A stretch of 36,921 bases of DNA, from IMG/VR virus record IMGVR_UViG_2531839667_000014, positions 1 through 36,921 of that record. One strand, 5' to 3'. Below, in pieces: positions 23,010-23,163 of the stretch; within the stretch, counting starts at the first letter, position 1, and each line of letters starts with the position of its first letter. Under the pieces are notes generated by a model. That model made no database searches. It was given only the letters and a program-made list of their open reading frames with translations, and had not been told where the DNA came from. This DNA is from a virus (taxonomy: Duplodnaviria; Heunggongvirae; Uroviricota; Caudoviricetes). The position numbers and the translations under genes are program-made.

Positions 23010-23084
23010 TGGAGCGGGCAGCGGGAATCGAACCCGCATCATCAGCTTGGAAGGCTGAGGTAATAGCCATTATACGATGCCCGC
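23010..23084 (-). tRNA. tRNA-Gly (anticodon UCC)
   Basis: Reverse complement GCGGGCATCGTATAATGGCTATTACCTCAGCCTTCCAAGCTGATGATGCGGGTTCGATTCCCGCTGCCCGCTCCA; acceptor, anticodon (loop CTTCCAA) and T arms pair; TTCGATT T-loop; encoded CCA. Confidence 0.9.
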
Positions 23085-23087
23085 ATA

Positions 23088-23163
23088 TGGTGCCGACTAC
23101 CGGAATCGAACTGGTGACCTACTGATTACAAGTCAGTTGCTCTACCTACTGAGCTAAGTCGGC
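23088..23163 (-). tRNA. tRNA-Thr (anticodon UGU)
   Basis: Reverse complement GCCGACTTAGCTCAGTAGGTAGAGCAACTGACTTGTAATCAGTAGGTCACCAGTTCGATTCCGGTAGTCGGCACCA; cloverleaf pairs; anticodon loop CTTGTAA. Confidence 0.9.

Follow-up and report, generated by a model that had tools for sequence, protein, structure and literature searches.

Why should a lambdoid prophage carry, between a candidate late promoter and its lysis genes, two tRNA genes that match those of its host base for base? The question arises from a stretch of 36,921 nucleotides of viral DNA (hereafter the window), in which an earlier note, made from the sequence alone, had described genes for tRNA-Gly (UCC) and tRNA-Thr (UGU) at 23010-23163. 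We asked what these genes are, what surrounds them, how widely the arrangement occurs and which explanation best accounts for it.

The identity of the genes is straightforward. ARAGORN makes exactly two tRNA calls in the whole 36.9-kb window, Gly(tcc) and Thr(tgt), and the Rfam tRNA model RF00005 matches both genes over its full length (model positions 1-71 of 71) with scores above its gathering score of 29 bits (Table 1). Both programs thus agree with the coordinates given in the earlier note, and the canonical cloverleaves that it described are borne out by the Rfam matches. The encoded CCA ends and the 3-nt gap that it had read are likewise present in the sequence and in the alignments to K-12, the spacer being TAT on the coding strand (UAU in the RNA). 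The sole detail absent from that description is the strand. Both genes lie on the minus strand, and the order of transcription is therefore Thr to Gly. Their identity to K-12 thrU and glyT extends over every position, including the CCA, and so by sequence neither gene is a pseudogene. A 95-aa open reading frame that overlaps tRNA-Thr (23126-23413) was treated as spurious.

Comparison with the host glyT and thr loci, a check that had been proposed, shows identical bodies and unrelated flanks. Outside the tRNA bodies, alignment of the region reveals zero similarity to the K-12 thrU-tyrU-glyT-thrT-tufB operon, and capture from the host together with flanking sequence was rejected on this ground. 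Recent capture, as might be read from the 100% host identity, was dropped because this identity is uninformative: a tRNA cluster in Photobacterium carries the same Gly(UCC) sequence and a Thr(UGU) that differs at one position. Since the Photobacterium copies are near-identical, the match to the host mirrors the extreme conservation of these tRNAs and is silent on the date of capture.

Table 1. Features of the window discussed in the text, in order of decreasing coordinate
Feature	Position	Strand	Evidence or remark
Q late-gene antiterminator (lambda Q family)	23457-24278	minus	Pfam PF03589 Antiterm, E=1.9e-50; DCE7 'antitermination protein'
Candidate late promoter PR' and promoter-proximal motif	23409-23451	minus	motif reading; lambda-like spacing
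tR'-like intrinsic terminator, AGCCCGCCTCCGAGCGGGTT then TTTTTTAT	23350-23377	minus	terminator scan; kept in related prophages
Post-tR' segment common to many lambdoid prophages	23274-23352	minus	its downstream end is the upstream boundary of the cassette
Promoter-like site, TTGAAT-N16-TATTAT	23230-23257	minus	promoter scan; conserved across lineages
60-nt leader hairpin	23164-23223	minus	ends pair: GGUUC...GGG / CCC...GAACC
tRNA-Thr(UGU), encoded CCA	23088-23163	minus	ARAGORN; Rfam 73.8 bits; 76/76 identical to K-12 thrU
tRNA-Gly(UCC), encoded CCA	23010-23084	minus	ARAGORN; Rfam 64.9 bits; 75/75 identical to K-12 glyT
Structured 3' trailer, 184 nt, three long stem-loops	22826-23009	minus	fold statistics, RNAalifold
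Intrinsic terminator closing the cassette, GCCCGCTTTTGCGGGC then TTTTCTTTTC	22778-22805	minus	terminator scan; hairpin 22787-22802
Class II (S21-type) holin, first lysis gene downstream of the tRNAs	22502-22717	minus	Pfam PF04971
Lysozyme	22005-22502	minus	downstream of holin; Pfam PF00959
Rz	21541-22020	minus	downstream of lysozyme; Pfam PF03245
istA (rve/HTH)	12043-13065	minus	IS21 element
istB	11264-12046	minus	IS21 element; PF01695, E=1e-111

The window is a lambdoid prophage. A near-identical prophage adjoins yccA in E. coli DCE7, and the two are 99.9% identical across the interval from Q to the lysis genes. The DCE7 annotation begins with integrase, exonuclease, immunity and replication genes and DUF968-RusA-Q, and continues through tRNA-Thr, tRNA-Gly, holin, lysozyme RrrD and Rz1 to an HK97-type head, a lambda-type tail and Lom. 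Pfam also confirms terminase and capsid genes in the window, where the parts follow in the order Q, a lambda-like PR', tR', the tRNAs and holin-lysozyme-Rz, with the holin start 292 nt past tRNA-Gly. The prophage genes said to lie on both sides of the pair are the Q gene upstream and the S21-type holin gene downstream, and the same Q-to-holin slot holds the Thr-Gly pair in hundreds of prophages.

Two further loci in the window deserve mention. An IS21-family element (11264-13065, minus strand) separates the tail chaperone G gene from the 3' end of the major tail gene and is missing from the otherwise near-identical DCE7 prophage. The copy in the window is probably tail-defective through this insertion, and selection for lytic function may therefore already be relaxed here. 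A hok/sok type I toxin-antitoxin locus is present at 26563-26886 on the minus strand (labelled hokD in DCE7), where the Rfam sok model scores 100 bits at 26713-26886 and overlaps the hokD-like open reading frame.

Directly after the Q stop codon stands the motif TTGATT-N16-TAAATT-N6-AACGATGGG, with its -35 element at 23451-23446, its -10 element at 23429-23424 and AACGATGGG at 23417-23409. Lambda has TTGACT-N17-TAAATT-N6-AACGATGGG downstream of its own Q, the spacing from the -10 element to AACGATGGG being identical, and the arrangement is kept in four prophages with differing tRNA arrays. The motif is therefore a candidate PR' with a promoter-proximal pause element, whose activity we infer from the sequence. 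The hairpin of the tR'-like terminator (23377-23358, followed by a T-tract) lies about 60 nt from the presumed PR' start, and the tRNAs lie about 190 nt further downstream. With this motif and tR' on one side and the holin gene on the other, the pair occupies the place between late promoter and lysis genes that had been ascribed to it.

The interval from PR' to tR' (23350-23451, minus strand) would yield a terminated transcript of about 60 nt, compared with 194 nt for the 6S RNA of lambda, and this predicted short RNA recalls the StxS sRNA made from the equivalent transcript of Stx phages. In the Rfam scan of 22400-23600 its hairpin drew a sub-threshold Trp_leader match (25.8 bits, gathering score 41), which we counted as noise.

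The upstream limit of the tRNA cassette can be placed by comparison with other prophages. The segment of about 80 nt that follows tR' has matches of 80-93% in 2,232 of 5,426 complete E. coli genomes. Homology to other prophages then ends at ...TTTTTCGACA, and of the complete E. coli genomes just 8 contain the whole of the 107 nt beyond TTTTTCGACA, counted as coverage of at least 80% of the query. The post-tR' segment also occurs in prophages with unrelated Q genes. Elsewhere it forms the 5' leader of a 65-aa open reading frame (WP_000917763), and in the window the tRNA cassette replaces that frame.

Between this boundary and the first tRNA lies a promoter-like site. We compared loci that carry Thr and Gly only, namely the window type, three further E. 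coli or viral lineages and Citrobacter braakii. In nine sequences from these roughly five divergent lineages TTG, the 16-nt spacer and TATnAT are invariant, and the sequence around the motif has largely diverged. Pairing of the leader hairpin starts about 8 nt past the -10 box and closes 3 nt before the 5' end of tRNA-Thr. The hairpin measures 51-60 nt and folds in all nine lineage representatives, with 98.6% of cells paired; two pairs show double changes, which amounts to weak covariation support. A leader peptide or attenuator was also considered, in the form of a 15-codon open reading frame (ATG at 23193-23191, encoding MYPGISFTPEEPMPT and a stop) that has a Shine-Dalgarno-like sequence and runs into tRNA-Thr. 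This reading was rejected because the ATG is lost in one related locus (L043) and the frame is missing from the other lineages.

At the other end, the cassette terminator lies 60 nt upstream of the holin start, and 76 of 121 related loci have a terminator-like hairpin no more than 450 nt after Gly. A promoter-like element of its own thus precedes the pair directly, and a terminator directly follows it, both of them conserved sequence motifs. Taken with the leader and the structured trailer described below, these motifs make the pair look like a complete inserted unit, and it seems to be a self-contained promoter-to-terminator unit, or moron, between tR' and S.

Relatives of the cassette are numerous. 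Among complete E. coli genomes, 21 share the 1.2-kb Q-to-S layout of the window, and 520 of 5,426 (about 10%) hold the Thr-Gly pair together with 200 nt of the trailer. A scan for the exact junction between the tRNAs places the pair in at least 120 IMG/VR contigs and, among representative genomes, in E. coli (three copies), Shigella flexneri (three copies), Citrobacter braakii and Enterobacter hormaechei. Deposited phages with the pair include phi467, vB_EcoS-689R5 and PhiR47_1. In most of the 129 loci of the junction-scan set Thr and Gly each differ from the host genes by 0-2 mismatches, figures that the scan pattern of 23 exact bases biases toward conserved copies. Decayed relatives do exist, with 12-17 mismatches in Gly at two loci (L099 and L119). 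A Thr-Gly pair 95.5% identical to that of the window also lies at 296457-296611 of NZ_CP041417.1 (STEC711), a 306-kb record labelled as a plasmid, which may be a phage-plasmid or an assembly artefact.

The commonest array among the 129 loci is Ile2-type(CAU) - X - Thr - Gly with spacers of 1-3 nt, and the two-tRNA form seen in the window accounts for 18 of them. In the four-tRNA arrays, the first slot and its promoter are the pT-ileZ module of phage 933W. Slot X is occupied by an argN-like scaffold of 77 nt whose anticodon loop varies (for example at 2151-2227 of both L003 and L004, and in L011-L137). The loop is CCTTTAA (UUU) in at least 55 loci, where C replaces the near-universal U at position 33, CTTCTAA (UCU) in about 31 and CTTCGAA (UCG) in one. 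A second slot-X lineage, 75 nt long, has AAA, UAA, UUA (stop) or irregular loops. This variation could reflect anticodon shifting or decay.

What the two tRNAs might supply was assessed from codon usage. tRNA-Thr (UGU) reads ACA and ACG, tRNA-Gly (UCC) reads GGA and GGG, and thrU and glyT are each single-copy in K-12. We compared 37 prophage genes, excluding those of the IS21 element, with 50 host genes (42 from the 100-150 kb region of K-12 and 8 that flank the DCE7 prophage), a set that is not the true host genome. ACA occurs at 12.8 per 1000 codons in the prophage and 5.2 in the host set (bootstrap 95% interval of the difference 4.9-10.4), and GGA at 12.1 and 6.1 (3.0-8.7). ACG and GGG are enriched 1.6-2.0-fold in the prophage, and the four codons together span 1.6-2.4-fold.

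Demand was then assigned to 39 host tRNA species by a decoding table that follows Dong et al. 1996. The largest absolute rises fall on Gly2(UCC)/glyT (+15.2 per 1000) and Thr4(UGU)/thrU (+14.9), a ranking that requires the shared codons ACG and GGG to be credited to these tRNAs. If only exclusive codons are counted, ACA and GGA take about second to fourth place, close to CGG and AGA. By ratio of enrichment the top codons are AGG, AGA, CGG and AUA, which fit the Ile and Arg tRNAs of relatives (ileZ for AUA, and Arg with UCU or UCG).

The codon-usage check proposed in the earlier note therefore puts the two carried species at the top of the excess demand, with one caveat. Lambda has no tRNA genes, yet its late genes show this excess too (ACA 10.4, ACG 28.4, GGA 10.5 and GGG 17.4 per 1000), so the bias is a general trait of lambdoid late genes and the tRNAs can be dispensed with. 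In addition, ACA is absent from the major capsid gene, which is presumably translated more heavily than any other late gene. These results fit a cassette that acts as a facultative booster of codon supply, not as a requirement.

We consider it about 75% probable that the pair are functional, phage-carried duplicates of thrU and glyT, arranged as a self-contained moron in the late leader and serving to boost tRNA supply. This reading builds on the observed identity of the genes, their position, the conserved motifs and the codon statistics. From these we infer promoter activity, timing of expression, processing and a fitness benefit, as follows. The unit would comprise a sigma-70-type promoter, the 60-nt leader hairpin, Thr, the 3-nt spacer, Gly, the 184-nt trailer and the intrinsic terminator. 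In a lysogen, the promoter of the cassette would make a precursor that stops at the cassette terminator, and the lysis genes would therefore stay silent. After induction, Q-modified RNA polymerase from PR' would pass tR', the cassette and the cassette terminator, and the 5' part of the late transcript would then be a further source of the tRNAs. The mature tRNAs would be freed by RNase P, RNase E and 3' exonucleases. The added copies would raise the levels of two low-abundance tRNAs, for codons that are about twice as frequent in the prophage as in host genes, with faster synthesis of late proteins as the expected result.

Conservation of the promoter-like motif and leader amid diverged surroundings counts in favor of this supply explanation, as do the exact match of both tRNAs to host genes that are essential and the spread of the cassette over some 520 of 5,426 E. 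coli genomes and at least 120 viral contigs. The bias of lambda, the capsid gene that lacks ACA, the decayed copies in relatives and the IS21 insertion in the tail module count against it.

Because comparative evidence suggests an autonomous promoter-to-terminator unit, expression in lysogens is predicted, and the benefit could fall there as well. Constitutive expression from the cassette's own promoter would double the gene dosage of two single-copy, low-abundance host tRNAs, and better translation of acquired genes rich in ACA and GGA would favor retention of the prophage. We regard such lysogenic conversion as a serious possibility with the odds somewhat against it. The conserved promoter-like motif downstream of tR' and a terminator that insulates the lysis genes are in keeping with it, and so are the persistence of the cassette in an apparently tail-defective prophage and its presence in about 10% of complete E. 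coli genomes, at times with three copies each. However, a location in the leader of the late operon suits Q-dependent expression equally well, and the codon match was established for genes of the prophage itself rather than for accessory genes of the host. A benefit to the lysogen is also compatible with the supply explanation that we favor.

The pair might instead be a relic, a neutral hitch-hiker from a bacterial tRNA operon that has been moved by recombination of Q-to-S modules and has no selected function here. The region from Q to S is indeed a mosaic and a hot spot of recombination, where many alternative inserts occur, lambda manages without tRNAs despite an equal codon bias, some relatives hold decayed copies, and identity to the host is, given the Photobacterium cluster, uninformative on age. 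Yet the 151 tRNA positions stay at 0-2 mismatches in most of the 129 loci amid flanks that have largely diverged, and the promoter hexamers and leader helix are also kept across lineages. The retention of tRNA bodies, promoter and leader in such surroundings is a signature of purifying selection, which makes a functionless passenger improbable.

An even less likely account draws on defence. Phage tRNAs counter tRNA-cleaving defences in T5 and in mycobacteriophages, and extra tRNAs could similarly refill pools that are drained during infection by tRNA-targeting toxins of the host or of a competitor, such as anticodon nucleases or tRNA acetyltransferases. The strongly varying anticodon slot of related arrays, which includes Lys-UUU, a known nuclease target, would suit this account. 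However, the tRNAs of the window are identical to the host genes. They carry no changes that confer resistance, so they would be cleaved or modified like the host's own and are not nuclease-resistant variants. Moreover, we are aware of no nuclease that targets Thr(UGU) or Gly(UCC) specifically, and the match to codon demand accounts more simply for the choice of these two species.

Although tRNA genes are common attB sites, there is next to no chance that these are host tRNAs at the junction of two tandem elements and act as an att site, given that Q and the holin gene of one continuous same-strand late operon flank them, that the integrase lies about 13 kb away and next to yccA by the DCE7 annotation, that the rest of the window is free of partial copies of either tRNA 3' end, and that host thrU and glyT reside at the tufB locus with tyrU between them. 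The earlier note's view of the pair as cargo and not an integration target therefore stands. The genes are internal to the prophage, whereas an att-site tRNA would lie at its boundary, next to the integrase and with a duplicated 3' segment.

The remaining part of the cassette is the trailer. The 292-nt interval from Gly to the holin start folds with z = -4.3 relative to shuffled controls, and an RNAalifold consensus of 15 sequences contains 58 pairs, of which 8 show compensatory double changes. Counted directly, 98.3% of trailer cells are paired, compared with 40-49% when partners are slid by 1-3 columns, and none of 500 shuffles reached the observed covariation score. Independent compensatory events are few, because most double changes separate just two lineages. 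A second lineage, which includes Enterobacter hormaechei, preserves the first 180 nt or so after Gly at about 75% identity. The loops UGCGAUGAUGGG, GCAAAAUUGCUGUG and GGGUGGUUUGUUGGAU are invariant. A coding trailer was rejected, since single-nucleotide indels between the lineages exclude a conserved reading frame.

Searches for known counterparts of the trailer gave no candidate. It has no Rfam match at E<1, and at that threshold the Rfam scan of 22400-23600 returns just the tRNAs plus noise and, noise apart, no sRNA family. PasA, PasC and PasD were set aside because their published probes have no match in the window at three or fewer mismatches. No complementary partners for the invariant loops were found in the window beyond chance expectation.

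The trailer occurs in 536 of 5,426 E. coli genomes and is annotated in none of the 536. A covariance model finds it, among the loci examined, only beside tRNA arrays of this kind. It is an optional module, because many Thr-Gly cassettes are without it. On one viral contig (L082) the trailer, at 5113-5299, lies about 500 nt upstream of the Thr-Gly junction (5796-5822) and not downstream, an arrangement that suggests tandem or rearranged cassettes.

We propose, tentatively and with more doubt than confidence, that the trailer might represent a so far undescribed family of structured RNAs that accompanies phage tRNA arrays, either as a regulatory RNA of the 3'ETS type or as a cis element. In the former case a stable regulatory RNA could be released from the tRNA precursor. 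In the latter, a processing or stability element could cap the 5' end of the late lysis mRNA after cleavage by RNase P and RNase E.

The trailer may be the sole new part of the cassette. The Thr-Gly cassette as such is an ordinary, known kind of phage cargo, and PGAP annotation already lists this exact pair in hundreds of E. coli genomes and several deposited phages. What is added here is modest. The two carried tRNAs are the host species with the largest rise in demand in this prophage and so provide a clean example of codon supply, tempered by the lambda control. The trailer, if functional, would be a tRNA-linked addition to the regulatory RNAs of the PR' moron site.

The known RNA closest in layout to the trailer's 3'ETS-type option is 3'ETS-leuZ of the glyW-cysT-leuZ transcript, which is released from the stretch between the CCA of the last tRNA and a U-tract intrinsic terminator. 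The trailer has the matching architecture, running from the CCA of the last tRNA to the intrinsic terminator, but it shows no sequence similarity to 3'ETS-leuZ and is far longer, with about 230 nt to the terminator and three long hairpins. The anti-sRNAs AsxR and AgvB, together with PasA, PasC, PasD and StxS, are prophage sRNAs encoded at the PR' moron site (PMC4104026; bioRxiv 10.64898/2026.05.13.724894). The cassette shares their neighborhood, between Q/PR' and the holin gene of lambdoid prophages, and differs from them in that the window does not match the three Pas probes at up to three mismatches and, over 22400-23600 at E<1, matches no Rfam sRNA family apart from noise.

The E. coli thrU-tyrU-glyT-thrT-tufB operon encodes identical mature tRNAs, and Thr(UGU) precedes Gly(UCC) in both places. 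The cassette lacks homology to its flanks as well as tyrU, the 116-nt spacer, thrT and tufB; its spacer is 3 nt, and its promoter and genomic context are different.

The closest known system is the tRNA cassette of 933W and related Stx phages. That phages can carry tRNA genes between Q and the genes for lysis or toxin has reportedly been known since the 933W genome study by Plunkett and colleagues in 1999. Our literature searches on a lambdoid Thr/Gly tRNA pair or on ileZ/argN/argO found nothing relevant, and the comparison is therefore based on the GenBank annotation of 933W. That record gives the order pR', qut, terminators, 'pT; putative tRNA promoter', ileZ-argN-argO, terminator and stx, where pT is TTGCAG-N17-TATTAT. 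The position of the pair does mirror this cluster, as the earlier note had stated. In both phages Q and pR' are followed by one or more terminators, a tRNA promoter (in the window, a promoter-like site), closely spaced tRNAs for host-rare codons, a terminator and late genes. The cassette of the window lies on the same strand after Q, PR' and tR' and before the lysis genes, and the codons that its tRNAs read are rare in the host and enriched in the phage. Its promoter-like site is analogous to the annotated pT, with TATTAT as the -10 element in each, and its closing terminator resembles the one annotated after argO.

The two clusters differ in content. Ile2 and Arg tRNAs are present in 933W, whereas the window holds only Thr(UGU) and Gly(UCC), with no homologue of ileZ, argN or argO. 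Those three genes are phage-specific, and the tRNAs of the window are exact host copies. The window also has another promoter segment with the 60-nt leader hairpin, and a 184-nt structured trailer that is missing from 933W. Nevertheless, the two clusters meet in the relatives of this prophage, which carry the 933W pT, an identical ileZ and an argN-like tRNA joined to the Thr-Gly pair.
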